Positions 11,744 through 40,806 are shown, numbered from the stretch's first letter. The stretch is 41,608 nt of DNA from an uncultured Gammaproteobacteria bacterium (GCA_964596475.1 CAZQTS010000002.1:1-41608), one strand, 5' to 3'. The notes: generated by a model not told the origin, from the sequence alone. Program-made: numbers and translations.

Positions 11744-11752
11744 ATCGTTATC

Positions 11753-12760: not shown

Positions 12761-12767
12761 ACGCGTT

Positions 12768-13178: not shown

Positions 13179-13188
13179 GTGATCGATG

Positions 13189-16106: not shown

Positions 16107-16168
16107 GATGTTTTACTATTTTAGCCCTTGTGCAACAAAAAATCTATGCTAGGATTATTACAACAAAT

Positions 16169-25576: not shown

Positions 25577-25991
25577 AGGTCCAAAATTTATTCATAAAAA
25601 AATTCCAAAATACCACTACTCCTATAGTGAGCACATTAGCGATGAGGTCATAGATCCCGAACCGTCGCACCAAGATATAGAGAATCGATGCAGACAGGCC
25701 GAGCGAGACAAGACTGACAATAACGAATTTGACATATTGCTCAAAGGCGGCTTCCAGCGAACGCGAACGAAACGTCCAGTATTTGTTCATCGTGAAACTG
25801 AAACAGACAGCTGCAAACCACGACACGACCTTTGCCACCATGAAATGCAAGCCGAACACGCGGGTTGCCAGTAGATACACGGTAAAATCGATAATTGAAT
25901 TGCCGGTTCCGACAATGCTGAATTTGGTAAACTGCCTGTAGTGAGGCGGCACGATGCTTACGATGAGCTGTTTTAAATTCATGATGATCAT
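25566..25991 (-). CDS. GtrA-family membrane protein (polyprenyl-phosphate-sugar translocation associated)
   Basis: 141 aa. 'FTKFSIVGTGNSIIDFTVYLL' and 'FSFTMNKYWTFR...FWNFFMNKFWTF' are the duplicated GtrA signatures. It has four TM helices. Confidence 0.8.
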   Translation of the reverse strand: MIIMNLKQLIVSIVPPHYRQFTKFSIVGTGNSIIDFTVYLLATRVFGLHFMVAKVVSWFAAVCFSFTMNKYWTFRSRSLEAAFEQYVKFVIVSLVSLGLSASILYILVRRFGIYDLIANVLTIGVVVFWNFFMNKFWTFGR

Positions 25992-28057
25992 TTCGTTAAG
26001 CTAAAGCCGAAGCGGACATTCCTTTGTACGGTATCGTTCCCCGCAGCATCAATGGTATTGATTATGCGGCCATAATAATCGAACAGGGTCAACGACGTAC
26101 CCGCAACAAGCGGATACGTTATGATATCCACCTGACCGTCGCCGGTGTAGTCAGCAACCAAGAGACTGATCTGCTGTTCAGGGATACTCGGGTTCGGAAA
26201 GAGTGGAAACCGATTCTTCTCCTGTGCCTGACCGTCGAAGATGCGCGCCTGCACGTTGCGATCAGTCTCTTGGGCAACGATAATCTCGTTTCGACCGTCA
26301 TAATCCACATCACCAACACCGAGTGTCAACCCGCCACGGAAATCTGAAGCAAAAGCCATGAACTGGCCTTTGAGACCGCCATGCTGATCAAAAATACGGA
26401 TATGAGGGCCGCCGCGCGATGCAGGAGCAGTTAAAATCTCTGCTCGTCCGTCGTTGTCAATATCTCCTGCCGCAAGTTTCACCCCTCCCCGAAAACGCTG
26501 ATCATAACTGAAAAAGCTGCCAACCGCCCGACCCTTTCCGTCAAACACTCGGACTTGTGGACCTGCTCCGGAAAGCACCGCAACGATGATCTCTGCCTTT
26601 GCATCGCCATCGACATCAGCAACAGCAACACTTAATCCGCCACGGAAGTCGGGTGCGAAAGCCATAAATTGACCCTTGAGGTCACCCTGCAAATTAAAAA
26701 TCCGGACATGGGGACCGCCCTGTGAAAGCGGAACAGTAACGATTTCATTTTCCCCGTCGCCATCAACATCCCCGGTTGTCACCGATACGCCGCCATTAAA
26801 GCGCGGCCCGTAAGCTAAAAACTCTGATATGGTGACGCCGTTTTTGTCCTTTACGAGAACCCGAGAACCAAAACCCCGACCTGGCGCCATGACAATACGC
26901 ACCGGCTTCTTTCGTGAAAGCCCCAGCGCCGCATCAACTGCCTTCTTGATATCCAACATTCCGCTGCCCAGATCCTGATAATTGGTATTTGAGGCCTGCA
27001 GGCTGCTTGCGTTAGTAAGGATCAAGCGGTAGATGTCAGCAAGATTCAAATTCGGTGCCACCGCCTTAATCATGGCGATAGCGGCCGAGACTAATGGTGC
27101 TGCAACCGAGGTGCCGCTCCACCCGCCTGCGTAGTAGAGGTTAAAATCCGGGTTATTCGGGATGTACCACGCCGTGCTAAAAAAATTAGTTCCTGGCGCG
27201 GCGATATCAATACAGGACGATCCGTAATTGGAAAAAGGAGCCAACGTATTGAACGCGTCCACGGCCGCAACGCCCACCACATGATTGATGCCCGCCTCTT
27301 CGCAAATCGGATACCGCGGCATTTCATCCAAATCAACGCCAACATTCTCCTGATTTCCGGACGCTGCAACTACCGCAACACCGGCGTTATACGCAGCCTC
27401 AATACTGTGCACAAGACGCGGATCTCTGACATCACCAATAAGGCTCAAATTGATCACGTCGGCACCGTTTTCGACTGCGTAATCAATTGCTTGCGTCAAG
27501 AGAATTGTATTTCCCGCGCCACTGCTGTCTAAAATCCTTAGGGGCATGATTTTTGTCGAGAGCGACGCGCCGGCAACACCAATCCCGTTATTGATGACTG
27601 CCGCGATGATACCGGCGACCACCGTACCGTGATTGGCACCCTCGTACGAATACCCCTCTTCTAATTTTGGTCGTGGATCAGGCCGTGACAGCAAGAAATC
27701 CCAGCCCTGCACATCATCGATGTAGCTGTTAGCGTCGTTATCAATCCCGTCCGCAGCTATTTCATCTGCATTGTGCCAGATATTCTGCGATAAATCTGGA
27801 TGATCAATGGCAACGCCGGTGTCGAGTACTGCCACCACGATGTCTCGACGTTGTGTGTACTGTTGGACCACATCCCATGCCGAGGATGTTTTTACCCGCA
27901 ACAGATACTCTTGTCGTGCAAATTCCGGATCATTCGGCAGCAGCGCAATCGAGACTTGTTCTCGTCCGAAGCCGCCTGCCCGGAGACCAAAAAAAGGCGT
28001 GCCCGTGATCATGAGCACTAACATAAAACAGAGGTGTTTCTTTACTCGCCAAAGCAT
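25988..28057 (-). CDS. Secreted S8 (subtilisin-family) serine peptidase fused to a C-terminal FG-GAP/integrin-alpha-like repeat propeller
   Basis: Catalytic triad contexts are 'VAVLDTGV' (Asp), 'HGTVVAGIIAA' (His) and 'GWSGTSVAAPLVSAA' (Ser). At least five repeats of the type 'GDVDGDGENEIV / ADVDGDAKAEII / GDIDNDGRAEIL / GDVDYDGRNEII / ADYTGDGQVDII' follow. The start is set at ATG 28057 ('MLWRVKKHLCFMLVLMITG', signal-peptide-like). The ORF-track start at 28159 would run through the promoter-like site and into the edge of the hairpin-element region. Confidence 0.8.
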   Translation of the reverse strand: MLWRVKKHLCFMLVLMITGTPFFGLRAGGFGREQVSIALLPNDPEFARQEYLLRVKTSSAWDVVQQYTQRRDIVVAVLDTGVAIDHPDLSQNIWHNADEIAADGIDNDANSYIDDVQGWDFLLSRPDPRPKLEEGYSYEGANHGTVVAGIIAAVINNGIGVAGASLSTKIMPLRILDSSGAGNTILLTQAIDYAVENGADVINLSLIGDVRDPRLVHSIEAAYNAGVAVVAASGNQENVGVDLDEMPRYPICEEAGINHVVGVAAVDAFNTLAPFSNYGSSCIDIAAPGTNFFSTAWYIPNNPDFNLYYAGGWSGTSVAAPLVSAAIAMIKAVAPNLNLADIYRLILTNASSLQASNTNYQDLGSGMLDIKKAVDAALGLSRKKPVRIVMAPGRGFGSRVLVKDKNGVTISEFLAYGPRFNGGVSVTTGDVDGDGENEIVTVPLSQGGPHVRIFNLQGDLKGQFMAFAPDFRGGLSVAVADVDGDAKAEIIVAVLSGAGPQVRVFDGKGRAVGSFFSYDQRFRGGVKLAAGDIDNDGRAEILTAPASRGGPHIRIFDQHGGLKGQFMAFASDFRGGLTLGVGDVDYDGRNEIIVAQETDRNVQARIFDGQAQEKNRFPLFPNPSIPEQQISLLVADYTGDGQVDIITYPLVAGTSLTLFDYYGRIINTIDAAGNDTVQRNVRFGFSLTK

Positions 28058-28079
28058 TTTGGGTAAACAAAGCCTGCTC

Positions 28080-28108
28080 ATTATACAAGAAAGGTCTGCG
28101 ACGCACAA
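28080..28108 (-). promoter_or_regulatory. Candidate promoter of the 10-gene S8-peptidase/glycosyltransferase operon (TTGTGC-17 nt-TATAAT on the minus strand)
   Basis: Read on the minus strand, TTGTGC lies at 28108-28103, followed by a 17-nt spacer and TATAAT at 28085-28080. This is 22 nt upstream of ATG 28057. Confidence 0.4.
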
Positions 28109-28178
28109 CTTTAATACTTGTCTGCGAGACAAGCCGAAGGCGCAGTCGAGCAGGTACAAGTATTAAACCCTGAGCGAA

Positions 28179-28243: not shown

Positions 28244-30328
28244 TTAGAGCTGGCCGAGAAGGTTTTGCGCAAACCCCATGAGGTCTGACTTGAAAGCGTA
28301 TGGGGGGTCAGGCAACCGCTCGATGAACTCCATGACCGCACGGAGCGTTTCTTTTTCTCGATAATTGTAGAGAAATGAAATAATCAGTCGGAAGTGTTCA
28401 GGAGCAAGGCCTAAGTAGGTATCCTCCATATAGGCAAGGAGCGCGTCAAAATTTTGATCGCGCACCCCTCGCGCGCCGAGAAGGAGCAGATTCAAATCAA
28501 AGGCTTGTGGCGCAAGACGTATACTGGTCTCAAGGTCAGATAGTGCCTCAGTCATGTAGTGCTCCTGTTCAGCAGACGTTGAGTTACGTGCGGCAAGATC
28601 AAGGTGAATGAGTCCTCGCAACTGATAGAGTTGCGGGTCTTTTGGACTGATCAAAAGTGCGATCGATGATAAATTCTTCGCGCTAAGAAGCCGATCAGGA
28701 AACGATCCCGATGTATTTCGATATATGCGGGCGAGCAAGGTCAAGAAACGACCGTCGAGCGGATGCTTTTGAACAATCTCGTCGGTCCATACACGTAATT
28801 GCTCGTACGCGCCGATATGCTCCGGCGACGTTACTGGTTGAAGTGATTGCGCAAGTTTTACCACAACAACTTCGCGAGCCTGCTCGGAGAGTGACCATGC
28901 GATTGAAAAGTTCGCAACTTTCCTCTGAAGATCAGCCTCACGCTCTGCTGCCCGGGAAAAAAAACTTGCTGCAACCACGCGGGTCTGGGCGCTCAAGACA
29001 AACCCCGCTGAAATCAATAGCGCGCTCATTGCAATCCAATTCGGAGCATGCGTATGAGCACTGTGGGATTGCCGCGGTGATGCCTGGAGGTGGTAGAAAT
29101 AAGCAAGGTACACAAAAAAGATAAGCGAATCAGCAATTGAATGAAAGAAGAAAAGGAGATACAAGTAATAACCCAGGAGAAACATGAGCAGCGTGGTTTC
29201 TGATTCACTCATGCGACCTCGGCGGAGCCAGCAATACAGAGGCGTTGCGAGAAACAAAAGATACGAGAGCAATCCGAAGAGGCCGGTTGCCACGCCGCGC
29301 TCGAGAAATTCATTGTGCGGTTTGTCAAAAAAAGTGCTCTGACCCCACCCCAGATAGAGCCGCGGATCATAATACCGCTCAAAAACCAAATGATAGTTAT
29401 TATCACCCCAGCCGGTCCACGGTCTTTCTAACATCCCTTGCACGGCCATCTGCCAGTTGGCAAGACGACTGTTGATGGTTTGAGAACCTTTGACCGGATC
29501 ATATCGTTCAGTAAATTCTGAGATTCGTGAACGTTCGATGTTGAGCACAGCGACGGTCAGAAGTATGCTGAACGCGAATGCAGCGAGGACATAGATTCGA
29601 TTGGTATTTGTTTTTCGATCTGATTTCTGCGCAGTAAATCCGAAAAATAACAGTGTGAGCGCCAACGCGACCCCAAGCCCCAAGATCGTTGACCGTGTGT
29701 TGGCTAAAATTAAGATCGGTGTCTGGATACTGATCATTGCTGCATAGAGCACGCGAAACCGTGGGTGGTCAATCAGCAGTAGATAGCAAGCGAGTCCGAT
29801 AACCAATAGTAGGTAGGCGCTCAAAAAAGAAGGATTGCCAACAGTTGAGAAGAGTCGTCCGCCAAAAAAATAAACATCGAATAATGAGAAAGATTGCGCC
29901 CAAGCAAAGAGAGCAACGAGTGCACCGATGCTGACCAGCACGCGAAAATAGTTAATCCATTGCGCACGAGTCCGCAGCACAGTAATCAAAAGAAAAAAAT
30001 ATCCATACAGGTAGAGCCAGTCAGCAACGCCGCCAAACCGCTCCCAGCGACCACTATAGCTTGCCGCGGTATTCAAGCTTACCATGTTCAAGATGAGCAG
30101 CGAGGCGCCAAACGTAGCAAAAAGAAGGAGCGCAAACGATACTCTTGGCCGCGACGTCTGATCAAAGATCCATAGAAAAAGCAGGGGCACAAGACTCAAT
30201 CCAACGACCGCCTGCGTAAAGTGAACTTGCGTAAAGATATACGGGGAGCTCAAATACAGCGAGAATAGAAGTGGCGTGAGTAAGAGTGCATAAGCACAAC
30301 CGTGAAGATATTTTTCCAAAAAAAACAT
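28244..30328 (-). CDS. O-antigen ligase (Wzy_C) family polytopic membrane protein with a ~250-aa C-terminal helical-repeat (TPR-like) domain
   Basis: 694 aa with about 12 TM helices. The Wzy_C signature 'FDKPHNEFLERGVATGLFGLLSYLLFL' is present. The C-terminal soluble helical region begins at 'FFSRAAEREADLQRK...'. Confidence 0.7.
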   Translation of the reverse strand: MFFLEKYLHGCAYALLLTPLLFSLYLSSPYIFTQVHFTQAVVGLSLVPLLFLWIFDQTSRPRVSFALLLFATFGASLLILNMVSLNTAASYSGRWERFGGVADWLYLYGYFFLLITVLRTRAQWINYFRVLVSIGALVALFAWAQSFSLFDVYFFGGRLFSTVGNPSFLSAYLLLVIGLACYLLLIDHPRFRVLYAAMISIQTPILILANTRSTILGLGVALALTLLFFGFTAQKSDRKTNTNRIYVLAAFAFSILLTVAVLNIERSRISEFTERYDPVKGSQTINSRLANWQMAVQGMLERPWTGWGDNNYHLVFERYYDPRLYLGWGQSTFFDKPHNEFLERGVATGLFGLLSYLLFLATPLYCWLRRGRMSESETTLLMFLLGYYLYLLFFFHSIADSLIFFVYLAYFYHLQASPRQSHSAHTHAPNWIAMSALLISAGFVLSAQTRVVAASFFSRAAEREADLQRKVANFSIAWSLSEQAREVVVVKLAQSLQPVTSPEHIGAYEQLRVWTDEIVQKHPLDGRFLTLLARIYRNTSGSFPDRLLSAKNLSSIALLISPKDPQLYQLRGLIHLDLAARNSTSAEQEHYMTEALSDLETSIRLAPQAFDLNLLLLGARGVRDQNFDALLAYMEDTYLGLAPEHFRLIISFLYNYREKETLRAVMEFIERLPDPPYAFKSDLMGFAQNLLGQL

Positions 30329-30414: not shown

Positions 30415-30443
30415 TTGACTCATGGCATCATAATCAGTATAAT
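30415..30443 (+). promoter_or_regulatory. Strong sigma70-type promoter (TTGACT-17 nt-TATAAT) for the plus-strand operon 30455-35326
   Basis: TTGACT at 30415-30420, an exact 17-nt spacer, and consensus TATAAT at 30438-30443. The ATG at 30455 is only 11 nt past the -10 box. Confidence 0.6.
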
Positions 30444-30454: not shown

Positions 30455-31837
30455 ATGAATACGATGAAACTCAAAAAAATCCTGCTCCTTATTGGAGACG
30501 TGAGCCTCCTCTATGTGGCACTCTATATCACGCTGCTTATTCGCTACTCTCCGAATTTGACTTCTGAACTTTGGATGAGACATCTCATTCCCTTCTCGCT
30601 TCTCTTCGTCGTCTGGATAGTGGTGTTTTTTATCAATAATCTCTATACGGTGCAGCTCATAAAAAATGATTTTCAGTTTTACGGTTACCTTGTTCAGAAT
30701 CTCATCATTAACACGTTGATCGGCTTTACGTTCTTCTACCTCTCCCCTGCCTCACTCACCTCGCTTCGACCCCTGCGGGTGCTGCTGCTCCTTGTCGTCA
30801 TCTACGCGGTGCTCTTTTTGCTCTGGCGCATCAGCTTCTATAGGCTGACCGGTAGCAGAACGCTTGCCAGTCGGCTGCTGCTCATCGGCGTCACACCCGA
30901 GTCAATTCAGCTTTCGGAATTACTTGAGCGAAATCCGCACTATGGTTACAAAGTAAGTCTCATCATCAATTTTGATCAAACTCCCTTGCCGCAAACACTT
31001 CAGCACATCCCTCACCTCAAAGACCTCACCGATCTCGTCAATTCGATAAAAAAATATAAGATCAACACCGTGGTCACCACCAACAATCCGCAGCACAGCC
31101 CAACCATTGCGCGGTACTTATTCGAAACGCTCGGCATCGGGCTCAATTATTTCAATTTCCCTGCCTTTTACGAGAAACTCACCGGCAAGATTCCAATCGC
31201 ATCCCTTGAAAAAACATGGTTTCTCGAAAACCTGCTTTCCGGCAACAAACCGATCTATGAGTTCACGAAACGTCTGCAAGACATTTTTTTCTCTTTCTTC
31301 TTTGGTATCCTTTCCCTACCGCTCATCCCCTTTATCGTGCTGGCGATACGATGCAATTCAAAGGGACCGATTCTCTTTAAGCAGGTCCGCGTCGGCAGGG
31401 GCGGTAAAACTTTTACCGCAATGAAATTTCGAACCATGGTCGCACATGCCGAACAAGAAGGGCCCCAATGGGCAACCAGAGGCGACAAGCGCATTACTCG
31501 TGTCGGAAAATTCCTTCGTAAGACAAGGCTCGACGAAATCCCGCAATTTATCAATATCTTGAAGGGCGATATGAGTTTCGTGGGCCCGCGGCCGGAACGC
31601 CCGGAATTCGTAAGCCTCTTGAGTGAAAAAATTCCCTTCTACAAAGAGCGCCTGCTGGTAAAGCCGGGGCTTTCAGGCTGGGCGCAAATTAATTTCAAAT
31701 ACGGCGATTCAATCGAGGATGCAATGACAAAGCTGCAATACGACATTTTCTACATTAAGAATCGCTCGTTTACACTCGATGTGTCCATTATTCTCAAAAC
31801 GCTCAACACCATCATGAGCGCAAGCCTCGGTCAGTAA
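30455..31837 (+). CDS. Polyprenyl glycosylphosphotransferase (WbaP/PssY-type initiating sugar transferase)
   Basis: 460 aa with N-terminal TM helices. The C-terminal 'bacterial sugar transferase' domain reads 'ILFKQVRVGRGGKTFTAMKFRTMV...DKRITRVGKFLRKTRLDEIPQFINILKGDMSFVGPRPERPEF'. Confidence 0.85.
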   Translation: MNTMKLKKILLLIGDVSLLYVALYITLLIRYSPNLTSELWMRHLIPFSLLFVVWIVVFFINNLYTVQLIKNDFQFYGYLVQNLIINTLIGFTFFYLSPASLTSLRPLRVLLLLVVIYAVLFLLWRISFYRLTGSRTLASRLLLIGVTPESIQLSELLERNPHYGYKVSLIINFDQTPLPQTLQHIPHLKDLTDLVNSIKKYKINTVVTTNNPQHSPTIARYLFETLGIGLNYFNFPAFYEKLTGKIPIASLEKTWFLENLLSGNKPIYEFTKRLQDIFFSFFFGILSLPLIPFIVLAIRCNSKGPILFKQVRVGRGGKTFTAMKFRTMVAHAEQEGPQWATRGDKRITRVGKFLRKTRLDEIPQFINILKGDMSFVGPRPERPEFVSLLSEKIPFYKERLLVKPGLSGWAQINFKYGDSIEDAMTKLQYDIFYIKNRSFTLDVSIILKTLNTIMSASLGQ

Positions 31838-31838
31838 C

Positions 31839-32558
31839 ATGTCAGGCGCAAACCAACTCATCCTCATCACCGGTGGCAGGGGAAGACTCGGTGCGGCACT
31901 CGCCCGCATTCTGCCCGCGCAGTCAGTTGATCGGGACGTGCTCGACATCACCGACGCTTCTGCGGTGAAGATTTTTTTTAAAAAAAATCGCTTCGACATC
32001 GTGATTCACTGCGCTGCCTATACTGACGTCGCCTCTGCCGAACAGAATAAACAGGCCTGCTACATCACGAATGTCATCGGCACCGAGAGCATGATTAGAA
32101 ATTTCAAGGGTCAAAAGTTTGTGTATCTCTCAACCGATTACGTATTCGACGGCGAACGAGGCAATTACCAGGAGGAAGACACGCCGAATCCGGTTAACTA
32201 CTATGCCCTGACGAAACTTCTCGGCGAGATGGTAGTGCGACAGTATCCCCATACCTTGGTAATCCGCACGTCATTCAAAGCAGACGGTCCGTGGCCGTAC
32301 GAAAAAGCGTTTGTTGATCAGTGGACAAGCGCTGATTATGTTTCAGAGCGCGCGCCTGACATCGCGCGCGCCGCGCTCATGCCAAGCCTCTTCGGCGTCA
32401 TGCACATCGGCGGCGAGCGAAAAACCGTCTACGATCTTGCGAAAAAACAATCGCCGCAGGTTGGGAAAATATCGCTTGCGGATATTGGGACAAAGCTGCC
32501 CAGAGACGTTTCGCTCGACTCTTCTCGTTGGCGCGCACTGTTGAAAAACAATCCGTAA
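31839..32558 (+). CDS. rmlD: dTDP-4-dehydrorhamnose reductase-like SDR (short RmlD)
   Basis: 239 aa. 'LILITGGRGRLGAAL', 'DVLDITDASAV', 'DIVIHCAAYTDVASAEQNKQACYITNVIGT', 'STDYVFDG' and 'YALTKLLGE' (YxxxK) follow the RmlD pattern. Confidence 0.7.
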   Translation: MSGANQLILITGGRGRLGAALARILPAQSVDRDVLDITDASAVKIFFKKNRFDIVIHCAAYTDVASAEQNKQACYITNVIGTESMIRNFKGQKFVYLSTDYVFDGERGNYQEEDTPNPVNYYALTKLLGEMVVRQYPHTLVIRTSFKADGPWPYEKAFVDQWTSADYVSERAPDIARAALMPSLFGVMHIGGERKTVYDLAKKQSPQVGKISLADIGTKLPRDVSLDSSRWRALLKNNP

Positions 32559-32562
32559 TACC

Positions 32563-33708
32563 ATGCGCCTCTACGAATACGAAGCTAAAAAAATACTTGC
32601 TGCGTATGGTGTCGCAGTACCGAAACAGATTGCCCTTATCGAAAGCGGCACGAGCGTAAGCAGCACAGTGAGCTACCCCGCGATGGGAAAACTCCAGGTC
32701 CTGTCAGGAAAAAGAGCAGCGCAAGGAGGGATTGCTCTGCTGAAGTCTGAAGCCGACCTCCGGAAATTCTGCAATGCCATGAACGGAAGAGTCCTTATTG
32801 AGGAACACATAGAACCACTTGCGCAGAACCTATACGTTTCAATCCTCTACCTCCAAGGTGGCTTACCGTACGTACTCCTTTCACGAGGCGGAGGCAGCAA
32901 CGTAGAATCTCAATCGAGCACGCTGCTGACGGTGCCCATCGATATCTTAACCCAGCACATGACCCCCGCAAAAATTGAGGCGCTCAACCTGCCTCAACGC
33001 GAGAGACTGTCAGTGGAAAAACTCCTTCAGAAACTTATCGTCTGTTTTTTTGCCGAAGACTGCGTGAGTCTAGAAATAAACCCGCTTGCGTTAACTTCAC
33101 ACCATGACTGGATTGCGCTGGACGCGAAAATCACACTGGATGATCGCGCAATCTTTCGCCACCCCGACCGAACCCATGAAACCCTTGTTTTTAGACCGAC
33201 CCCCTCTTTTACACAGCGAGAGCAAGCGGTACAGACTTTGAATCAGCACCGCGAATACGGCGGCACACCGTGTCGCTATACGGAACTCGACGGCGACGTC
33301 ATACTGCTCTTGTCCGGTGGCGGCGCAAGCATGGTGGTATTCGATGCGCTCGTACACCTGGGCGTCCGGCCAGGCAATTATTCGGAATATAGCGGCAATC
33401 CGCGCAAAGAAAAAGTCGAGGCACTGACGCGCATCGCCCTTGAGAAGCCGAATCAAAAAGGTCTCTTAGTCGCTGGCGCCATCGCCAACTTCACCATGAT
33501 TGATGAAACAATGACCGGCATCGCCGCTGCGCTCATCGAAGCAAAGCCGTCCTATCCGATTGTGATCAGGCGAGGCGGACCGAACGAGAAGCGAGCAAAA
33601 ATTATGATGGAAGACCTTGCGCGCAAACATCATCTTGACATCACGTGGCTCGGCTCAGAAAAAACCCTGCTTGAAGCAGCGCAAATTTTCGCACAAAAAA
33701 TTCGTTGA
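32563..33708 (+). CDS. SucC/AclB/CcsA-like ATP-grasp subunit of an acyl-CoA synthetase (ATP-citrate-lyase-like)
   Basis: 381 aa. 'MRLYEYEAKKILAAYGV', 'LEINPL', 'LDAKITLDDRAIFRHPD' and 'LSGGGASMVVFDAL' are SucC-like. 'VAGAIANFTMIDETMTGI' resembles the ACLY/AclB 'GGSIANFTNVAATFKGI' segment more than SucC 'NIFGGIVRCD'. Confidence 0.65.
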   Translation: MRLYEYEAKKILAAYGVAVPKQIALIESGTSVSSTVSYPAMGKLQVLSGKRAAQGGIALLKSEADLRKFCNAMNGRVLIEEHIEPLAQNLYVSILYLQGGLPYVLLSRGGGSNVESQSSTLLTVPIDILTQHMTPAKIEALNLPQRERLSVEKLLQKLIVCFFAEDCVSLEINPLALTSHHDWIALDAKITLDDRAIFRHPDRTHETLVFRPTPSFTQREQAVQTLNQHREYGGTPCRYTELDGDVILLLSGGGASMVVFDALVHLGVRPGNYSEYSGNPRKEKVEALTRIALEKPNQKGLLVAGAIANFTMIDETMTGIAAALIEAKPSYPIVIRRGGPNEKRAKIMMEDLARKHHLDITWLGSEKTLLEAAQIFAQKIR

Positions 33709-34610
33709 GTATGCGCGAGCCCTACTACACACCAATGCTGCGCATGATCGTCCAGGGCGCCACCGGCACTGAAGGACGGCGCGCCGTCGAGTTCATGAAA
33801 TCATACGGAACCAATGTGGTGGCCGGCGTCACCCCGGGCAAGGGCGGACAGGAAGTCTCCGGCGTACCCATATTCAATTCAATCGCAGAGGTCATTTCGG
33901 AGATTGGCACTATCGACGGCACCTCGCTCTACGTTCCGCCAGCAGCCAATAAAGCAGCTGTGACTGAAGCAGTGAACAACGGAATCACGTTCGTGCATAT
34001 TCTCACCGAAGGCACTCCCCGCAAGGACTTAGCGTACCTCGTGACGCTTTGTAAGCAAAAGGGTGTCCTCCTCCTTGGCCCAGGTTCACTCGGCATTATC
34101 GTAACCGATATCAACCGTATAGGCATGATTGGCGGACCGAACCCGAAAGAAACGTACACAAAAGGCACCATCAGCGTGATCTCGCGGTCCGGCGGTATGG
34201 CAAATGAAATCGTCCACTTTTTAGCCCAGCACGAGCACGGCGTCCGTGCAGTGGTGCACCTGGGTGCAGAAAAAAGCACTGGCGTTTCTCTCACCGAGCA
34301 ACTCACCACATTCCTCAATGATTCGGAAACAGAGACTATTGTGATTTTTGAGGAAATCATGCATCATGACCTTACTGCATTGTATAATTTCGCACAGCAC
34401 CAATCCGTGTCAAAACCCATTTTTCTCATTGTGGCCGGCACATCGTTTACCCGCGTCCCTGCGGATCGACCGTTCGGTCATTTTGAAAACCTTTTGAACA
34501 ACAGCAGCAATCACTTTTTCAAATCATTCGAAGATTTGCATCAGCTGTTTCAAAAACGCGGCATCACCGTGCTCAACCATTACGATGCATTGCGGCAGCA
34601 ATTTCAATAG
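33705..34610 (+). CDS. SucD/AclA-N/CcsB-like CoA-binding alpha subunit with an atypical phosphohistidine loop
   Basis: 301 aa. 'VQGATGTEGR', 'GVTPGKGG', 'GPGSLGI' and 'VISRSGGMANE' are SucD-like. The expected 'GHAGA' loop reads 'FGHFEN'. It has a 4-nt overlap with the upstream gene. Confidence 0.65.
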   Translation: MSMREPYYTPMLRMIVQGATGTEGRRAVEFMKSYGTNVVAGVTPGKGGQEVSGVPIFNSIAEVISEIGTIDGTSLYVPPAANKAAVTEAVNNGITFVHILTEGTPRKDLAYLVTLCKQKGVLLLGPGSLGIIVTDINRIGMIGGPNPKETYTKGTISVISRSGGMANEIVHFLAQHEHGVRAVVHLGAEKSTGVSLTEQLTTFLNDSETETIVIFEEIMHHDLTALYNFAQHQSVSKPIFLIVAGTSFTRVPADRPFGHFENLLNNSSNHFFKSFEDLHQLFQKRGITVLNHYDALRQQFQ

Positions 34611-34615
34611 GGGCG

Positions 34616-35326
34616 ATGGACTGGGAAACTTCAATTAGTCACCTTGATGAAGACGGCAACTTAGACGTGCGCGGTGTGCCGCTATCAAAGCTTTCGCAGC
34701 AGAGCTTTGTGGCAAACCTCTACTTTATCCTCACCGGCCTTACAGCGAACCGAAACGTAGAGAAGCTTCTCAACGTCCTCTTAACATTGAGCATTGATCA
34801 CGGCATTGGTCCTGTTTCAACCATGAACGCCCGTATCGCGGCATCAGCTGACGTTCCGCTCCCCCAGGCGCTCATCGCTGCGCTTTCGACATTCGGTCAT
34901 GCGCATGGAGCTGCAACCGAAGATGCTGCCCATTGGCTCAAGACGCATGCTGACGCCAGTCAATCAGCAAAGGAAGCTGTTCGCGATGCGCTTCTTCGAG
35001 GGAAAATTCCGGGTTTTGGTCACGCAGTTTTGAAAAAAGACCATCGAGCCGATCTACTCATAAACACTGCCCGAAAATTAAAACTTTCCGGTAAGCACTG
35101 CGCGTATGCCCTCGACACCGCGCGCGAACTTGAGTCACAGAAGGGCAAGACAATTCCACTCAACATAGACGGAGCAATCGCTGCCGTTGCGCTTGATCTT
35201 GGTATCGGTGCTGATGTGACCAGTGGATTATTCCTCATTGGCAGGCTACCCGGTCTGCTTGCGCACATTAGCGAAGAAAAGAGTCAAAAAAACGGCCTGC
35301 GGCGACTGCCGGTCGATACCACCTAA
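34616..35326 (+). CDS. Short citrate-synthase-superfamily protein (citryl-CoA-lyase / ACL C-terminal-module-like)
   Basis: 236 aa. 'LTLSIDHGIGPVST' can be compared with ACLY 'LTADHGPAVSG' and CS 'HADHE'. 'GFGHAVLKKDHRAD' matches the citrate synthase signature G-[FY]-G-H-x-[IV]-x-[RK]-x2-D-P-R. 'GRLPGLLAHISEE' can be compared with 'R..GW.AH..E'. Confidence 0.65.
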   Translation: MDWETSISHLDEDGNLDVRGVPLSKLSQQSFVANLYFILTGLTANRNVEKLLNVLLTLSIDHGIGPVSTMNARIAASADVPLPQALIAALSTFGHAHGAATEDAAHWLKTHADASQSAKEAVRDALLRGKIPGFGHAVLKKDHRADLLINTARKLKLSGKHCAYALDTARELESQKGKTIPLNIDGAIAAVALDLGIGADVTSGLFLIGRLPGLLAHISEEKSQKNGLRRLPVDTT

Positions 35327-35332: not shown

Positions 35333-36091
35333 CTAAGGCAGAATGCGCACCGGAATGCCTGCCTGCCGCATGCGCTGCTTGATGCTGTTCGAAGTATGTC
35401 CTGAATAATGGAACATGCTGGCCAGTGCAACAGCGCTTGCGCCTGCGTGCACCGCGTCTAGTACATCCTGGACTTTGCCAGCGCCTCCGCAGGCGATAAC
35501 CGGTATTGAAACCGCCGAGGTTACTTTCTGGATCAATGCCACATCAAATCCGGTCATGGTGCCATCGCGATCAATCGAGGTAAGCAATAGTTCTCCCGCT
35601 CCTCTCTGTTCCGCTTCCCGAGCCCAGGCGACGGCCGTCATTCCCGTATTTTCTTTAGCGCGGCGAGTGAACACACGGTATTCGCCGTCTAAAAACTTCG
35701 CATCGATAGAAACAACTACACACTGATCTCCAAACGTGCGCGAAACCTGATTAATAAAATCAGGATTCTTGATCGCTTCGCTCTGAAGAGAAACTTTATC
35801 CGCTCCTATACTTAACAGCCTAGAGACCTGATCCACCGTGTGGATACCGCCGCCGATCGTAAGTGGCATAAAACATTCTGGCACGATCTCACGTATGACA
35901 TCGTAGAGCGGTTCTCGCCCCTCCTCGCTGGCCAAAATATCAATAAAAATCAATTCGTCGACGTTTCTCGCATTATAGACCTTTGCCGTTTGTATCGGGT
36001 TGCCGAGATTGCGTAATTGGCCAAATTGAATGGTCTTGACCAGGCTCATGCCAGAAAAAAGCATGCACGGAATCAGGCGCGTCTTAAGCAT
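35333..36091 (-). CDS. HisF-like cyclase subunit, glycan amidation-associated (WbuZ/HisF2-type)
   Basis: 252 aa. 'RLIPCMLFSGMSLVKTIQF', 'DELIFIDI' and 'GAGELLLTSIDRDGTMTGFD'. It is clustered with HisH-like and N-acetyl-sugar amidotransferase genes, not with his biosynthesis genes. Confidence 0.75.
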   Translation of the reverse strand: MLKTRLIPCMLFSGMSLVKTIQFGQLRNLGNPIQTAKVYNARNVDELIFIDILASEEGREPLYDVIREIVPECFMPLTIGGGIHTVDQVSRLLSIGADKVSLQSEAIKNPDFINQVSRTFGDQCVVVSIDAKFLDGEYRVFTRRAKENTGMTAVAWAREAEQRGAGELLLTSIDRDGTMTGFDVALIQKVTSAVSIPVIACGGAGKVQDVLDAVHAGASAVALASMFHYSGHTSNSIKQRMRQAGIPVRILP

Positions 36092-36686
36092 AGGTCAAAA
36101 AGTTTTTTATCACTTGTATGCCCAAGAGCTGACTCTTTTCGGGGTGGAATTGAGTTCCGAAAATGTTTTCTTTGTGAATGGTTGCGACGAAACGCTCACC
36201 ATAGGTGCAGGTTGAAGTGACCACACCTGGCTCGTCGCACTGGAGATGATAACTGTGCACAAAGTACGCGTTGAGGTCAGGAAGGTCTTTCAGGAGCACA
36301 TCATCTTGAGCAATAGTGATGTCATTCCACCCTATATGCGGTAGGCGTTGCGTCTGTGCCAGCTTCTGTACCCTTCCCTTGATCCAACCCAAACCCTCGT
36401 GAACACCATACTCATGCCCGACCTCTGCCAAGAGTTGCATGCCCAGGCAGATACCCAAGAAGGGCAGCTTTTCCTTGAGTACCTTCGTCTGAAGCATAGG
36501 GATAAGACCGAAGTCCTTCAAACGCTGCATCCCTGCACCGAATGCGCCCACCCCGGGCAACACGATATGGGTCGCCTGCGCAAATACCGCAGGGTCTCTT
36601 GAGACTGCAACCGCGACGCCGAGTTTTCGAAACACCTTCTCTGCAGATGCAACGTTCCCCATTGCGTAGTCAACAACGACAACCAT
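36084..36686 (-). CDS. HisH-like glutamine amidotransferase subunit (WbuY/HisH2-type)
   Basis: 200 aa. 'VVVVDYAMGNVASAEKVF', 'LPGVGAFG', 'GICLGMQLL' (catalytic Cys), 'HIGWN' and 'YFVHSY'. It has an 8-nt overlap with the HisF-like gene. Confidence 0.8.
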   Translation of the reverse strand: MVVVVDYAMGNVASAEKVFRKLGVAVAVSRDPAVFAQATHIVLPGVGAFGAGMQRLKDFGLIPMLQTKVLKEKLPFLGICLGMQLLAEVGHEYGVHEGLGWIKGRVQKLAQTQRLPHIGWNDITIAQDDVLLKDLPDLNAYFVHSYHLQCDEPGVVTSTCTYGERFVATIHKENIFGTQFHPEKSQLLGIQVIKNFLTYA

Positions 36687-36688
36687 GG

Positions 36689-37837
36689 TTACTCGTTATC
36701 GTACTGTACCTTGATTAAATTTCCCGCATCATCACGAATAAAATTGCCGGATGAATCCCGCTGAAAAATCAACGTATTCGTAAAGCGATCAAAAACAGCG
36801 TCCACCTCATCCTTGCGCAAGCCGCTGTACTCAATAAATTTTTGTACCCCATAGTGAGGATACTTACCGTCATATTTTCGTACTAACGTAAGTCCCCCGT
36901 CGCGGGAAATCCGCCCATTGCGAATGTCGAGACATGCATGATCGGTCGCGCGTCCAAATCCATATTTGAGAAACTTCAAATAGTCGTGCACACTGACGGT
37001 TGCTTCATCGAGATTCTCATAGTTGGTATAGGTTCCCTCAACCGGTCCGTCGGTTTTGACGTTAAAACCGTGCTGCAGAATGATACGCACCTGCTTTCGC
37101 GCATCCCACTGAAAGTAGTATCCGAGAAAAATACCTCGCACACCGACGCGCTTTAACTCTTCGTCCCTTGGATAGGTATAGGCGAGCAAATCTTCTTTTG
37201 AAATCCCTTCGATCGTCAGCATATCTTCCACGCGATTGCCCAAGAGTCCGCCGAATTCCTCCAACCAGCGTCGATCAAGTATTTCTCTGTCGGCAGCCGT
37301 GCGGGGCCCGCCGTATTCCATCTGGGAATTTTCTCCCCAAATAATGAGCGGCACCTGATAGTTGACGGCGACGCGGACCGGAACAGTAAAAATGCCCACA
37401 TGATTAGGCCATTCATTATCGCCGACCCGTCGGAATCCCTCTATCACCATTTTTTTATAGACCTGCGGATTTTTTTTAAAATAGATAAGGTCAACACCGA
37501 GATTGTTGAGGTTTTGAAGATTGTGCCTGCCGAGCTCGGTCTGGTACGTAGGCTCAAAACACACGCACAAGGGGTTCAATCCGTACACTTTTTTGATGAG
37601 ATAAGTCTGGTACGTGCTGTCCTTACCGCCGCTCACCGGAATGATGCAATCATAGTTCTGCTTATCTTTTGAGCGATAGGTCAGAGTGAGCCGCTCGAAT
37701 TCCTTCTTTCTCTTGCCCCAGTCAATCACCAGTTTTCGTTCCGAGGACCGGCACGCATCACAGATACCGTCTGCGTCAAAAAAAAGATCTGGTTTTGTGC
37801 TCGGCATGACGCATTTCTTACAGTAGGTTAACTTCAT
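36689..37837 (-). CDS. N-acetyl sugar amidotransferase (WbuX/WbpG/PseA family, PP-loop ATP pyrophosphatase)
   Basis: 382 aa. It has the Cys-rich N-terminus 'YCKKCVMPSTKPDLFFDADGICDACR' and the PP-loop 'IIPVSGGKDSTYQ'. Confidence 0.8.
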   Translation of the reverse strand: MKLTYCKKCVMPSTKPDLFFDADGICDACRSSERKLVIDWGKRKKEFERLTLTYRSKDKQNYDCIIPVSGGKDSTYQTYLIKKVYGLNPLCVCFEPTYQTELGRHNLQNLNNLGVDLIYFKKNPQVYKKMVIEGFRRVGDNEWPNHVGIFTVPVRVAVNYQVPLIIWGENSQMEYGGPRTAADREILDRRWLEEFGGLLGNRVEDMLTIEGISKEDLLAYTYPRDEELKRVGVRGIFLGYYFQWDARKQVRIILQHGFNVKTDGPVEGTYTNYENLDEATVSVHDYLKFLKYGFGRATDHACLDIRNGRISRDGGLTLVRKYDGKYPHYGVQKFIEYSGLRKDEVDAVFDRFTNTLIFQRDSSGNFIRDDAGNLIKVQYDNE

Positions 37838-37848
37838 ACCATGCTCGG

Positions 37849-38580
37849 TTACGTTGTTTTTTGCGCTACACCGGCGTTTATCTGCACCAGTTCCGGGTGC
37901 TCATGCAGATACCCAATAACGTCTCGAACGTCAATGAGCCCCTCTCTTTTGTCAAACTTCTCGTACAACATTTTCAATAAATCATAATCCGCCTGCTCGT
38001 CAAGCGTAAGACGCATCTCTCCTTGGTATGCCGGAGGCGTCGGATAGGCGAGGGTCTTTCCTTTTTTTATGATGTAGGGCGTCACATGTTCTTTTTCTTC
38101 TGCACCCATTGCGTTCTGGTAAGCGTCCGTGAGCGCAGCAAATGAAAAAACCTCACAGTCGAGCCCTCGGGGGAAATTTCTCTCTAAGCAATTGCTGACA
38201 TACGCTACCTCTCTTGCGCGAAACAGCCGGATCGATTCGTCAATAATGAATGGATCGATCAACGGACAGTCTGCAGTCACTCGCACAATCACATCAAGCT
38301 TGTAGCGCAGCGCGCACTGATAGTACCGATCGAGCACATTCAGTACATTTCCCCGAAAAACTTCTATCCCCTGTCGCACACAAAGAGCGTGCACCGCATC
38401 ATCAAGAGAATCAGTCGAGGTGGCAACCACTACCATATGAGACTCAACGCTCGCGAAGCATCGCTCAACCACCCGCATCAGCACCGGCTTGCCTGCTAAA
38501 TCGAGCATGATCTTCCCGGGCAGCCGAGTAGAACCCATGCGCGCTTGGATGATTATTCCTGTTTTTCCGTTAGGGTTCAT
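37849..38580 (-). CDS. SpsF/PseF-like cytidylyltransferase-family protein (CTP_transf_3)
   Basis: 'GIIIQARMGSTRLPGKIMLDLAGKPVLMRVVERC' resembles the B. subtilis SpsF N-terminus. The start is set at ATG 38580 ('MNPNGKTG'), leaving a 7-nt gap to the upstream gene. The ORF-track start is 38610. Confidence 0.7.
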   Translation of the reverse strand: MNPNGKTGIIIQARMGSTRLPGKIMLDLAGKPVLMRVVERCFASVESHMVVVATSTDSLDDAVHALCVRQGIEVFRGNVLNVLDRYYQCALRYKLDVIVRVTADCPLIDPFIIDESIRLFRAREVAYVSNCLERNFPRGLDCEVFSFAALTDAYQNAMGAEEKEHVTPYIIKKGKTLAYPTPPAYQGEMRLTLDEQADYDLLKMLYEKFDKREGLIDVRDVIGYLHEHPELVQINAGVAQKTT

Positions 38581-39208
38581 TTTTTTGCAGTAAAAACATC
38601 GCATCTTCATTATTCTCTTTCAGGTACTTATAGCGTACCTCCCTCACCAGCGTTAGATCCGGGAACAGGTCCAGATAGATCTGCGAAAAATTGGCCTTCC
38701 AGAGTCGATCCGCATGTCCGCGGTACGGAATGGTCACAGAGGCCTCGGAGAAGTACTCAAAACCCCATATATATTTCCTTGACGTACGATGAATCTCCCG
38801 CATCGCGTCCTTAACGGTATCAGGACTTATGTGGATGAGAACGCCAGAGGTGAATACGAGGTCAAAAGACGCATCGGTCGCCGGTATAGCAAAGGCACTG
38901 CCCCTACTCATGGTGATACCAGGCGCTGCTTTCTTGGAAAGCGCTATCGCATCTTCATTTATCTCAATGCCATGTAAATCCGTATATCCCATGGTCTGCA
39001 AGACAAGTAACTGTGCGCCCATATTTGCGCCGACCTCGAGAATACTCTTGATGCGAAGCCCAGAAAGAAACTCTTTATTCATATCAGTCCGCGATATCCC
39101 GTATTTCTTGACGTAGAGCGCATCAAGATCGGCTGGTAAAAAGAAATTACGCTGCGTGTACTCGCTCCCGAAAGCTGACTGCCAAAATTTTTCCTGTGGT
39201 GTGGTCAT
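38570..39208 (-). CDS. Class I SAM-dependent methyltransferase, pseudaminic-acid-biosynthesis-associated methylase-like
   Basis: 212 aa. 'FWQSAFGSEYTQRN' N-terminus, 'ILEVGANMGAQL' (motif I) and 'FDLVFTSGVLIHI'. It sits between the PseH-like and cytidylyltransferase-like genes. Confidence 0.65.
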   Translation of the reverse strand: MTTPQEKFWQSAFGSEYTQRNFFLPADLDALYVKKYGISRTDMNKEFLSGLRIKSILEVGANMGAQLLVLQTMGYTDLHGIEINEDAIALSKKAAPGITMSRGSAFAIPATDASFDLVFTSGVLIHISPDTVKDAMREIHRTSRKYIWGFEYFSEASVTIPYRGHADRLWKANFSQIYLDLFPDLTLVREVRYKYLKENNEDAMFLLQKNEP

Positions 39209-39708
39209 AGTGTTTTGATTCGCGTCTCTTCAAAAATGAGATGCACGACGCCATCGCTTCTGTTCATCTCTACGAATCCGGCTTTCTTGAATGCTTTCAG
39301 TGATGCTTCGTTCTTTTCCTTGATGCGTGCCAAGATCCGTTTCAAAAAAGGTTTTTGTCTTAGAAATGAGCGGCAGCTGTACTCGATGGCGCTGGTGCCA
39401 TAGCCATAACCGCGAAACTCTTGCGCGATGGTAATATTGATTTCAGCATCATCCCCCTGGACATCAAAACGTACCGTTCCGATTGGCTGTCGGCTCTCAT
39501 TTAAAATGATAAAGGCGCGGCTTTTCGGGTCCTTGATAATTCTCTGCAGCCATCGCCGGTGTTCATCCACGCTGATCACTTCCTGATTCCATGAGTTTTG
39601 CCGCACGACAGGATCATTCCGCCACGCAAGCAGCAAGTCCGCATGATCCATGGTGACCGGGATAAGGGCACGCACCGCTCGGGATTGGTCGTGGAGATGA
39701 TCCGTCAT
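39205..39708 (-). CDS. pseH: GNAT N-acetyltransferase, PseH-like (UDP-4-amino-4,6-dideoxy-AltNAc N-acetyltransferase family)
   Basis: 'LLLAWRNDPVVRQNSWNQEVISVDEHRRWL' and 'IAQEFRGYGYGT'. The start is set at ATG 39708, which forms a TAATG stop/start overlap with pseI. The ORF-track start is 39759. Confidence 0.7.
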   Translation of the reverse strand: MTDHLHDQSRAVRALIPVTMDHADLLLAWRNDPVVRQNSWNQEVISVDEHRRWLQRIIKDPKSRAFIILNESRQPIGTVRFDVQGDDAEINITIAQEFRGYGYGTSAIEYSCRSFLRQKPFLKRILARIKEKNEASLKAFKKAGFVEMNRSDGVVHLIFEETRIKTL

Positions 39709-40802
39709 TATCTCGCTCCTTTTTCTTGTACCAGTTTCCATGAAAGAGGGGTACCGCACTCTATATCCAATCGTGCATGCTTTCCAAGCAATTCTTCGTA
39801 GTGCTTTGGGGCAATGCCATCCGCCGGGCGAATAACCCGAATGTTCTTTTCGGTAAATGATTCTCCTCTGCGAATATTCTCTACTGCAAAAATCGAGCGG
39901 CGGAATCGGAGGTTATATGCTTCAGCTTCGTTGACGGGGCCATAGTGCGGCATGCCCACGGCCTTCTCATTGCGACGAATGAGAGCAACCATCTCCTTCA
40001 TCTCAACGGGGTCAATCGAGAAACGCTTATCAAACGTCTCGTCATGGTGACTTTCCACCAAGTGCTTCTCAACAATAGCAGCGCCAACGGCCGCAGCAAG
40101 GATGGGAAACATAATGCCGCCGTTATTGTCAGAAAAGCCGCTGACGACATCAAATCGTTCGGCAAGATCCCGTATGGTACCTAAATTTGTATGTGCGGGA
40201 TCTGATTGATCTGCATAGGTATTGAGACAATGCAGCAACGCAATATCCCTTGCGCCCCCCTCGCGAAGCGCGCGCACCGATTCCGCGGTTTCTTCAAGAG
40301 AATTGAATCCAACCGACATGATGACCGGCTTTCCTATCTTTGCGACTTTCACGAGAAGCGGCAGGTGTGTCATTTCATAAGAAGCGATCTTATAGCATGG
40401 CAGCTTAAGCGTTTCTAAAAAGTCAACCGCGGTCTCATCAAACGGCGTGGAAAAAAATACCAAACCCAAACTTTCGGCTCGTTGTTGCAACTCTTCATGC
40501 CACTCCCATGGCGTATGCGCCTTCTGATACAGCTCATAAAGGGTATGCCCCTTCCATGCATCAGGGTTATCCTTGCCGCCGACCATAAACCACGATTTAC
40601 GGGAATTTATAGTTATTGTGTCAGCAGTATACGTCTGCAACTTGACGGCATCGCAACCAGCTGCTGCTGCAGCTTTCACAAGAGCAACCGCCTTTTCAAA
40701 GCTCTGGCTATGGTTGGCTGATAGCTCTGCTACGATAAAACAAGGCTGTCCATCGCCAATATTGCGCCGACCCCGTGGTGTTTGAATCGTGAACGTACGC
40801 AT
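39708..40802 (-). CDS. pseI: NeuB-family nonulosonic acid synthase, pseudaminic acid synthase-like
   Basis: 'GDGQPCFIVAELSANHSQSFEKAVALVKAAAAAGCDAVKLQTY' is the NeuB/PseI N-terminus, and a C-terminal SAF-like domain 'FAVENIRRGESFTEKNIRVIRP' is present. The start is set at ATG 40802 ('MRTFTIQ'). The 34-codon upstream extension in the ORF track overlaps the upstream gene. Confidence 0.8.
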   Translation of the reverse strand: MRTFTIQTPRGRRNIGDGQPCFIVAELSANHSQSFEKAVALVKAAAAAGCDAVKLQTYTADTITINSRKSWFMVGGKDNPDAWKGHTLYELYQKAHTPWEWHEELQQRAESLGLVFFSTPFDETAVDFLETLKLPCYKIASYEMTHLPLLVKVAKIGKPVIMSVGFNSLEETAESVRALREGGARDIALLHCLNTYADQSDPAHTNLGTIRDLAERFDVVSGFSDNNGGIMFPILAAAVGAAIVEKHLVESHHDETFDKRFSIDPVEMKEMVALIRRNEKAVGMPHYGPVNEAEAYNLRFRRSIFAVENIRRGESFTEKNIRVIRPADGIAPKHYEELLGKHARLDIECGTPLSWKLVQEKGAR

Positions 40803-40806
40803 AGGA

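Follow-up and report, generated by a model that had tools for sequence, protein, structure and literature searches.

Within a stretch of 41,608 nucleotides (GCA_964596475.1, CAZQTS010000002.1:1-41608; hereafter the window), three adjacent genes at positions 32563-35326 encode what is, by sequence and layout, a system of the citryl-CoA synthetase (CCS) and citryl-CoA lyase (CCL) type. On balance, the company that these genes keep in the window and in related genomes suggests that the trio serves as a citrate-cleaving module supplying acetyl-CoA for the acetylation of envelope sugars, and not as part of the reductive tricarboxylic acid (rTCA) cycle. In the clade to which the window belongs, such an acetyl-CoA module seems to have been drafted into operons for nonulosonic acids and exopolysaccharides. 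The MurA encoded in the window finds its best named matches in Komeilibacteria, Parcubacteria and Patescibacteria, and the contig therefore comes from a candidate phyla radiation (CPR, or Patescibacteria) bacterium. The trio is made up of the following genes:

32563-33708, plus strand: large (beta, AclB/CcsA-like) subunit of citryl-CoA synthetase, with ATP-grasp_2 and a Citrate_bind domain of the ATP-citrate lyase (ACL) type
33705-34610, plus strand: small (alpha, CcsB/SucD-like) subunit of citryl-CoA synthetase, with CoA_binding and Succ_CoA_lig/Ligase_CoA domains, the phosphohistidine domain being remodelled
34616-35326, plus strand: citryl-CoA lyase of 236 amino acids with a truncated citrate-synthase fold, recognised by PDB matches and by the C-terminal part of the Pfam Citrate_synt model

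Family assignment of the trio

Assignment to the CCS/CCL type follows from the ranking of PDB matches, from model scores, from the citrate-site motifs, and from conserved residues of the lyase. The beta subunit scores well above the cut-offs of both PF16114 Citrate_bind (82.7 bits against 26.8; 3.1e-23) and PF08442 ATP-grasp_2 (51.9 bits against 29.5; 9.9e-14), and its best PDB matches are AclB of C. limicola (6hxj_A, 1.1e-35) and CcsA of Hydrogenobacter thermophilus (6hxq_B, 2.2e-32), with all beta chains of succinyl-CoA synthetase (SCS) ranking lower. Its GAIANFT and RRGGPNE segments align with identical motifs of C. limicola AclB, which make up the citrate site in the structure of human ACLY with citrate. 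The alpha subunit matches Pfam CoA_binding (1.9e-19) and Succ_CoA_lig (3.1e-11) and carries the motifs QGxTGxEG, PGKGG and SRSGGM. Among PDB chains, an SCS alpha subunit (2yv2) ranks first for it at 1.6e-40, and CcsB (6hxq_A) is matched at 3.4e-37. The lyase covers only positions 145-353 of the 357 in the Pfam Citrate_synt model, that is, the C-terminal two thirds, and its best NCBIfam model is that of citryl-CoA lyase (NF004869; 168.5 bits, under the cut-off of 212, as are its scores for the other PRK06224 models). Among the matches listed, it is 36-40% identical to bona fide CCLs of Aquificaceae and 34-42% identical to most homologues from CPR and DPANN.

Alignment of the lyase with its homologues reveals invariant positions at H62, H97, H136, R144, D185, R210 and R229/R230. 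Mapped through the signature motifs of citrate synthase, H97, H136 and D185 presumably correspond to the His/His/Asp set of that enzyme, and the arginines to its oxaloacetate-binding residues. The catalytic histidines and aspartate, whose conservation was put forward as a check in a preliminary description of this region made from the sequence alone, are thus kept on alignment, and the motifs quoted there (AGAIANFT, FGHFEN, SIDHGIGPVS and GFGHAVLKKDHRAD) are all found in the translations.

Two other identities for these proteins were considered and rejected. The first is an ordinary SucCD pair followed by an ordinary citrate synthase: SCS equivalog models fall far under their cut-offs (NF001913, 149 against 370; NF004230, 177.7 against 336), the NCBIfam models of citrate synthase all fall far under theirs for the lyase, and the lyase matches H. 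thermophilus CCL (6hxp_A) at 1.8e-40 compared with 5.5e-16 for the best citrate synthase. Membership of the ACL family, as first proposed, is therefore upheld. The second is a lyase whose condensation partner for acetyl-CoA would be a nonulosonic acid, reacting through its 2-keto group; the conservation of every oxaloacetate-binding residue speaks against it.

Selection has acted on all three genes. Compared with its counterpart on L174, a sister contig from an independent assembly, beta has a dN/dS of 0.20, alpha one of 0.23 (0.29 in its C-terminal domain) and the lyase one of 0.155, which shows that the trio is under purifying selection.

Acetyltransferases beside the trio in CPR and DPANN

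About 170 loci were fetched, at 20 kb per locus, and surveyed with marker proteins of glycan and nonulosonic-acid synthesis; the clade of the window was delimited as the proteins at least 44% identical to its lyase. Outside that clade, 22 of the 51 non-redundant loci with a full trio have an acetyltransferase-like open reading frame (ORF) no more than 300 nt from the trio, and in a further 8 such an ORF lies within 2 kb. The density of such ORFs declines steeply with distance:

0-300 nt from the trio: 0.755 acetyltransferase-like ORFs per kb
300-2000 nt from the trio: 0.055 per kb
2-10 kb from the trio: 0.005 per kb

Immediately beside the trio the density is thus about 150-fold that of the 2-10 kb flank. 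The proteins responsible belong to several families: archaeal-type GlmU-like bifunctional nucleotidyltransferase/acetyltransferases of 430 amino acids (TIGR03992, 260-269 bits; cut-off 292), stand-alone GlmU-type hexapeptide proteins of 210-240 amino acids in which TIGR03992 is matched over its acetyltransferase half alone, GNATs of 114-141 amino acids, and one MBOAT. GlmS lies 2-5 kb from the trio in 8 loci. Within the clade, acyltransferases are found within 300 nt of the trio in 3 of 8 members and within 2 kb in 5 of 8. Among the matches listed, none of the three full trios from rTCA lineages (Nitrospirota and Leptospirillia: L045, L047 and L057) has an acetyltransferase neighbour.

Since these unrelated neighbours all use acetyl-CoA or acyl-CoA on sugars, acetyl-CoA would be the product of the trio that matters. 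The preliminary description had suggested a supply of acetyl-CoA for sugar acylation, and this strong convergence of several unrelated acetyltransferase families on the same three genes, read from gene content, lends that suggestion support.

The glycan-embedded clade

The clade is rare, with some 10-12 clusters among 5.8 billion proteins, and a search of 1.84 billion representatives returned only three besides the window that share its motifs. It is monophyletic for each of the three proteins (neighbour-joining bootstrap 192/200, 200/200 and 200/200) and deep, at a Kimura distance of 0.85-0.94. Each of the eight independent members whose flanks could be used lies within a cluster of envelope-sugar genes, their immediate neighbours differing and their stop and start codons often overlapping. 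In the following lines, PGT stands for the polyprenyl-phosphate glycosyl-phosphotransferase that initiates glycan assembly and SDR for a short-chain dehydrogenase/reductase; ACP, KR, DH and PPTase are acyl carrier protein, ketoreductase, dehydratase and phosphopantetheinyl transferase.

Window and L174: PGT, SDR, trio
L173: PGT, trio, flippase, all overlapping
L005 and L172: NeuB, NeuC, NeuD/PglD, trio, DegT, PseB-like
L003: NeuB, NeuC, cytidylyltransferase, BKACE, unknown protein, methyltransferase, trio
L001: BKACE, unknown protein, methyltransferase, trio, glycerophosphotransferase
L170: MBOAT beside the trio
L171: a set of FkbH, ACP, KR, DH and PPTase, then the trio, then MBOAT

Of the 8 clade loci, 7 have glycan markers no more than 10 kb away; of 45 non-redundant loci outside the clade, 5 do (Fisher p = 3.7e-5). 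L171 is the sole clade locus in which homology to the markers is lacking, and there Pfam gives MBOAT, formyltransferase and DUF218. That the setting is one of glycan genes and not of tricarboxylic acid (TCA) or rTCA cycle genes had been remarked upon at the outset; the association with glycan genes is now seen to be conserved in relatives.

Some of these neighbourhoods are of interest in their own right. Directly upstream of the trio at L001:5120-7918 and L003:5193-7946 stands a conserved module: a BKACE, of the acetyl-CoA-dependent beta-keto-acid cleavage family (NF052387, 220 bits, under its cut-off), a protein of 382-386 amino acids, and a class I methyltransferase. The protein between BKACE and methyltransferase has no match in Pfam or NCBIfam, and the same is true of proteins of 301-304 amino acids found beside the MBOATs. 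At L171:1163-7835, beside the trio and the MBOAT, are encoded an FkbH-domain protein (TIGR01686, 300 bits), a 4'-phosphopantetheinyl transferase, an AAC(3)-like/DUF4910 protein, a short-chain dehydrogenase, a MaoC dehydratase, a PP-binding carrier protein and a formyltransferase. Such an acyl-carrier set might build an acyl decoration of an unusual kind.

The same neighbourhoods bear upon a catabolic explanation, according to which the trio cleaves scavenged citrate, an ADP-forming acetyl-CoA synthetase converts the product to acetate with formation of ATP, and the position among glycan genes is incidental. Such a synthetase is indeed encoded in the window at 122-2137, where the preliminary description had placed it and where its family is confirmed; the sites for citrate and oxaloacetate are kept; and some trios outside the clade, for example that of L009, sit among housekeeping genes. 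Yet the synthetase lies 30 kb from the trio on the opposite strand, all eight clade members are found in glycan clusters despite differing neighbours and overlapping frames, and acetyltransferases of several unrelated families are enriched beside the trio to the extent given above. We therefore regard purely catabolic use of citrate as unlikely.

The remodelled phosphohistidine domain

What sets the clade apart within its family is the C-terminal domain of alpha. The histidine that would carry the phosphoryl group, His259 in the window, is invariant in the alignment, and the His-loop motif is found in 79 of 79 alpha subunits surveyed. Outside the clade the loop reads GHAGA in 67 of 68 alpha subunits (L012 has GHVGA), and its partner motif GExGG is present in all 68. 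In the window the loop is FGHFEN and the partner reads EEIMH. More generally, the clade has F-G-H-Φ-(D/E/S)-x in place of the canonical loop and EExxx in place of GExGG, forms that occur in no non-clade alpha of the set; the loops observed are FGHFEN, FGHADA, FGHVDA, FGHVDS, FGHISS, FGHAEV, FGHLDS and FGHLES, always with the histidine kept. SRSGGM persists as well, and so does the Glu of GExGG. The degenerate loop noted in the preliminary description is thus real, being the signature of a small clade and not a property of the family at large.

Of the columns that show conservation of 90% or more in the alignments without the clade, the clade has lost 20 of 78 in alpha, 6 of 75 in beta and 4 of 45 in the lyase. 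Sixteen of the 20 alpha columns lie in the C-terminal phosphohistidine domain and include a change of GGD to G[AS]E and the loss of a family-invariant Lys. In beta, two changes specific to the clade, A271G and T274S, lie on either side of Asn272 in the PxN motif, an acid-binding residue in SCS structures. Given that dN/dS is low and that the segment RPFGHFENLLN is identical in the window and L174, the remodelling of alpha does not represent decay. Elsewhere, a number of distant alpha-like representatives (P0370, P0372, P0379, P0380 and P0382) have the loops YGHTGT, FGHASN, FSHASN, FGHAAA and FGHTSA with altered GExGG equivalents, which suggests that further variants exist in the superfamily.

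These changes invite the idea that the domain, with an acidic residue two positions after His and with GExGG, GGD and the family-invariant Lys gone, marks a departure in mechanism or substrate among the NDP-forming acyl-CoA synthetases, possibly one yielding a non-acetyl acyl-CoA for nonulosonic acids. We hold this to be improbable, if not negligibly so. An activity of the ACL family on a substrate other than citrate had been raised as an option in the preliminary description; it gains no support from the conserved citrate and oxaloacetate residues, although the remodelled alpha leaves it a small residual chance.

As a rival to the main reading, altered chemistry would mean that alpha handles another carboxylate or transfers the phosphoryl group by another mechanism, and that the product is a non-acetyl acyl-CoA for unusual N- or O-acyl groups on nonulosonic acids. 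The column losses in alpha, the substitutions around Asn272 in beta, and the acyl-handling genes that adjoin the trio (BKACE at L001 and L003; FkbH, ACP, KR, DH and PPTase at L171) all speak for such a reading. Set against it are the ANFT and RRxGP motifs of the citrate site, which the clade keeps, the catalytic and oxaloacetate-binding residues of the lyase, which are retained in full in a protein with so few columns lost, and the persistence in alpha of the histidine, the Glu of GExGG and SRSGGM. Altered chemistry is accordingly unlikely.

A dead or decaying synthetase, in which alpha has forfeited its phosphohistidine function and survives as a relic or in a structural or regulatory role, would account for the loss of GHAGA, GExGG, GGD and the family-invariant Lys. 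It is very hard to reconcile with dN/dS of 0.16-0.29 for every part, with a loop identical in the window and L174, with an invariant histidine and a loop pattern of F-G-H-phi-D/E/S-x maintained across 10 distinct clade sequences at a Kimura distance of about 0.9, or with intact reading frames and conserved gene order, and we consider it most improbable.

Proposed function and its implications

By homology, beta would use ATP to phosphorylate His259 of alpha, and the phosphoryl group would pass to citrate held in the ACL-type citrate domain. CoA bound to the N-terminal domain of alpha would then displace phosphate to give citryl-CoA, which the separate 236-residue lyase would split into acetyl-CoA and oxaloacetate. 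Judging from the gene neighbourhood, the trio would act as a local generator of acetyl-CoA and recycler of CoA for those steps in the making of envelope sugars that need acetyl-CoA, N-acetylation of the PseH type among them, the matching steps in relatives being N-acetylation of the NeuD/PglD type and O-acylation of the MBOAT type. The result would be a compact cycle in which citrate, ATP and CoA yield acetyl-CoA and oxaloacetate, and the acetyltransferase gives CoA back.

Several considerations weigh against this proposal. Glycan clusters often hold acetyltransferases, and hence adjacency within the clade is by itself weak evidence; the signal from outside the clade is the stronger one. The acetyltransferase queries were drawn from neighbours of the trio, as a result of which the distant-flank background may be underestimated and other GNAT subfamilies missed. 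The small GNATs could act on protein, regulating the enzyme by acetylation, and not on sugars. All three proteins score under curated NCBIfam cut-offs, and an alpha subunit that has neither GHAGA nor GExGG means that phosphohistidine chemistry is not assured in the clade. Finally, no citrate transporter was seen in the window, and the ADP-forming acetyl-CoA synthetase encoded there could form acetyl-CoA from acetate.

A place in the rTCA cycle, or in a reversed reaction toward citrate synthesis with a gain of ATP, might be expected from the role of CCS and CCL as the citrate-cleaving step of Aquificae and from metagenomic surveys that score these genes as rTCA markers, but it is highly unlikely in a Patescibacteria bacterium whose trio lies amid envelope-sugar synthesis; neither the 41.6-kb window nor the flanks of the clade loci show any further gene of the TCA or rTCA cycle.

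The acetyl-CoA supply proposed here has implications beyond the window. Genes for CCS/CCL and ACL are routinely scored as markers of carbon fixation through the rTCA cycle in metagenomes. For their presence in CPR and DPANN lineages, which have no such cycle, no explanation had been given. The neighbourhood evidence suggests that in these minimal cells the genes do something else, namely convert citrate, presumably scavenged, into acetyl groups for amino sugars and surface glycans, with recycling of scarce CoA. If this is true, annotation would be corrected across at least several hundred candidate loci (from two collection scans), and the cell envelope of an episymbiont would depend upon a host-derived metabolite. 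Likewise, the trio would offer a simple three-protein module for regeneration of acetyl-CoA in vitro. More broadly, GHAGA is among the most conserved motifs of its superfamily, and its rewriting in the clade amounts to a natural experiment on the swinging phosphohistidine loop.

Organization of the operon

The trio follows two further genes on the same strand, behind a candidate promoter:

30415-30443, plus strand: candidate sigma-70-like promoter, TTGACT-17-TATAAT, 11 of 12 consensus positions, 12 nt 5' of the first gene
30455-31837, plus strand: PGT, the initiating sugar transferase and first gene of the operon (Bac_transf, 1.3e-66)
31839-32558, plus strand: short RmlD-like SDR of 239 amino acids (RmlD_sub_bind, 4.1e-40, model positions 3-150 of 287 only)

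The five plus-strand genes across 30455-35326 lie exactly where the preliminary account had placed them, and their domain content and order are borne out by Pfam and NCBIfam, with the qualification that the SDR matches only the N-terminal half of RmlD. The PGT exceeds the cut-off of TIGR03025 (376 bits against 295.55), while the SDR stays under that of TIGR01214 (131.8 against 224). The intergenic spacings are +1, +4, -4 and +5 nt. These stand as first listed save for the third, which hinges on the choice of start codon for alpha: a TTG at 33705 gives the 4-nt overlap with beta, and an ATG at 33711 gives a gap of 2 nt. The alpha gene of L174 is called from the ATG equivalent to window position 33711, which may be the true start. 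The near-consensus promoter is likewise present as reported; it is called from a consensus match only, promoters of CPR bacteria being uncharacterised, and promoter-like sites in the region (7, compared with 6.0 expected from shuffled sequence) are at chance level. A sequence scan detected no credible terminator-like sites between the five genes.

The same five-gene operon recurs in the independent assembly L174 with 88-98% amino-acid identity and so is not an assembly artefact. From their spacing and conserved order, the trio is probably transcribed together with the PGT and SDR genes. Between the window and L174, dN/dS is 0.064 for the PGT and 0.26 for the SDR, the latter with 92% identity. 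Synonymous divergence (dS) is 0.158 for each of these two genes, about half the 0.28-0.31 of the trio genes, a difference that could reflect recombination or differing codon constraints.

Flanking genes

A convergent pseudaminic-acid operon (35333-41415, minus strand) ends 6 nt from the stop codon of the lyase gene and comprises the following genes:

35333-36091, minus strand: WbuZ/HisF-like
36084-36686, minus strand: HisH
36689-37837, minus strand: WbuX amidotransferase
37849-38610, minus strand: cytidylyltransferase
38570-39208, minus strand: methylase associated with pseudaminic-acid synthesis
39205-39759, minus strand: PseH-like GNAT (PseH model TIGR03585, 57.7, under the cut-off of 93)
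39708-40904, minus strand: PseI (405 bits against a cut-off of 340)
40807-41415, minus strand: DUF218

The models TIGR03572, TIGR01855, TIGR03573, TIGR03587 and TIGR03586 all exceed their cut-offs in this operon, in which WbuX, HisH and WbuZ form an acetamidino set. The neighbouring PseH and nonulosonic-acid genes to which the preliminary description had referred thus belong to a pseudaminic-acid cluster, and the PseH-like GNAT, 3.9 kb off, is the acetyl-CoA-using enzyme nearest to the trio in the window. The ORF of PseI is listed as 398 amino acids from a TTG start, and the PseI model matches from residue 55 only. The true start probably lies downstream, which would abolish the 98-nt overlap with the DUF218 gene.

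On the other side of the operon two divergent genes were identified through Pfam:

28244-30328, minus strand: Wzy_C membrane protein resembling O-antigen ligase or polymerase
25988-28159, minus strand: S8 subtilase with FG-GAP repeats

Two or all three of the PGT, Wzy_C and S8/FG-GAP genes also accompany the trio in L003, L005, L172 and L173. The large S8 subtilase with FG-GAP repeats is kept beside the initiating phosphotransferase in the glycan clusters of this lineage, and Wzy_C joins them in the window and L003. About 18 kb upstream, at 10979-13668, lie genes for RmlA-like (NTP_transferase), RmlB-like (GDP_Man_Dehyd/Epimerase) and RmlC-like (dTDP_sugar_isom, 159 amino acids) proteins. Given these, the SDR could complete a dTDP-6-deoxyhexose pathway by adding the fourth step that they lack, bearing in mind that only its N-terminal half is RmlD-like.

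Three ORFs of the window, at 16130-18244 (704 amino acids), 3118-4722 (534 amino acids) and 14011-14550 (179 amino acids), have no match in Pfam or NCBIfam. The first of these is on the opposite strand to its neighbours, and AT skew shifts steeply there, at 15-18 kb (+0.32, then -0.18 and -0.24). A tRNA-Gln with anticodon TTG at 5217-5290 is the sole RNA gene found in the window by ARAGORN and Rfam.

Comparison with known systems

Of the characterised systems, the closest in layout is the CcsAB and Ccl pair of Hydrogenobacter thermophilus and Aquifex, reportedly the work of Aoshima and colleagues in 2004. The same three polypeptides are found there, including a separate lyase of about 240-270 amino acids with a truncated citrate-synthase fold, and the catalytic His/His/Asp and the histidine of the phosphohistidine loop are conserved in the window trio. 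There are also differences. The host of the window is a CPR bacterium in which the genes have no rTCA context; they are contiguous within a glycan operon, whereas among the matches listed the loci of Aquificaceae have CCL without adjacent CCS; the citrate loop of beta is ANFT, as in ACL, where Hydrogenobacter has ANNT; and alpha has neither GHAGA nor GExGG.

The trio has the domain set and the predicted overall chemistry of ATP-citrate lyase, known as AclBA in Chlorobium and as ACLY in eukaryotes. AclA fuses alpha and lyase, however, and in the window these are separate ORFs divided by a stop codon and a 5-nt gap. This division had at first been thought an unusual splitting of AclA, a view that can be set aside, as it is the ordinary CCS/CCL layout and is seen in all 68 fetched loci with a full trio. 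ACL, to go by the ACLY sequence, keeps the canonical GHAGA.

SucCD belongs to the same superfamily, and an SCS alpha chain is the top PDB match of the window alpha; in beta, by contrast, the ACL citrate-binding domain PF16114 takes the place of the C-terminal motifs of SCS. L164 encodes a CCS-like beta/alpha pair and, in addition, a SucCD-like pair of canonical type (FGGITKT, IRLYGTN, SRSGTLT), and the two kinds can be contrasted there motif by motif. Citrate synthase differs from the window lyase in its length of about 370-430 amino acids and in possessing an N-terminal segment of the large domain that the 236-residue protein does not have.

Counterparts of the trio are plentiful in other CPR and DPANN lineages. 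A preprint records homologues of CCS and CCL in both groups, misannotated as SCS or citrate synthase, and another paper lists these genes in DPANN as rTCA genes whose meaning is unclear. In the searchable literature such genes figure only as rTCA markers without a clear role, and there is no report of a link between the trio and acetyltransferases or GlmS/GlmU, nor of the glycan-embedded clade or its rewriting of GHAGA and GExGG. Found in Magasanikbacteria, Daviesbacteria, Curtissbacteria, Nanoarchaeota and others, these trios belong with that of the window in one family and share its three-gene cassette, their proteins being 34-42% identical to those of the window among the matches listed. 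They differ from the window in having the canonical His-loop and GExGG and in lying mostly outside glycan clusters, typically beside GlmU-like or GNAT acetyltransferases and GlmS.

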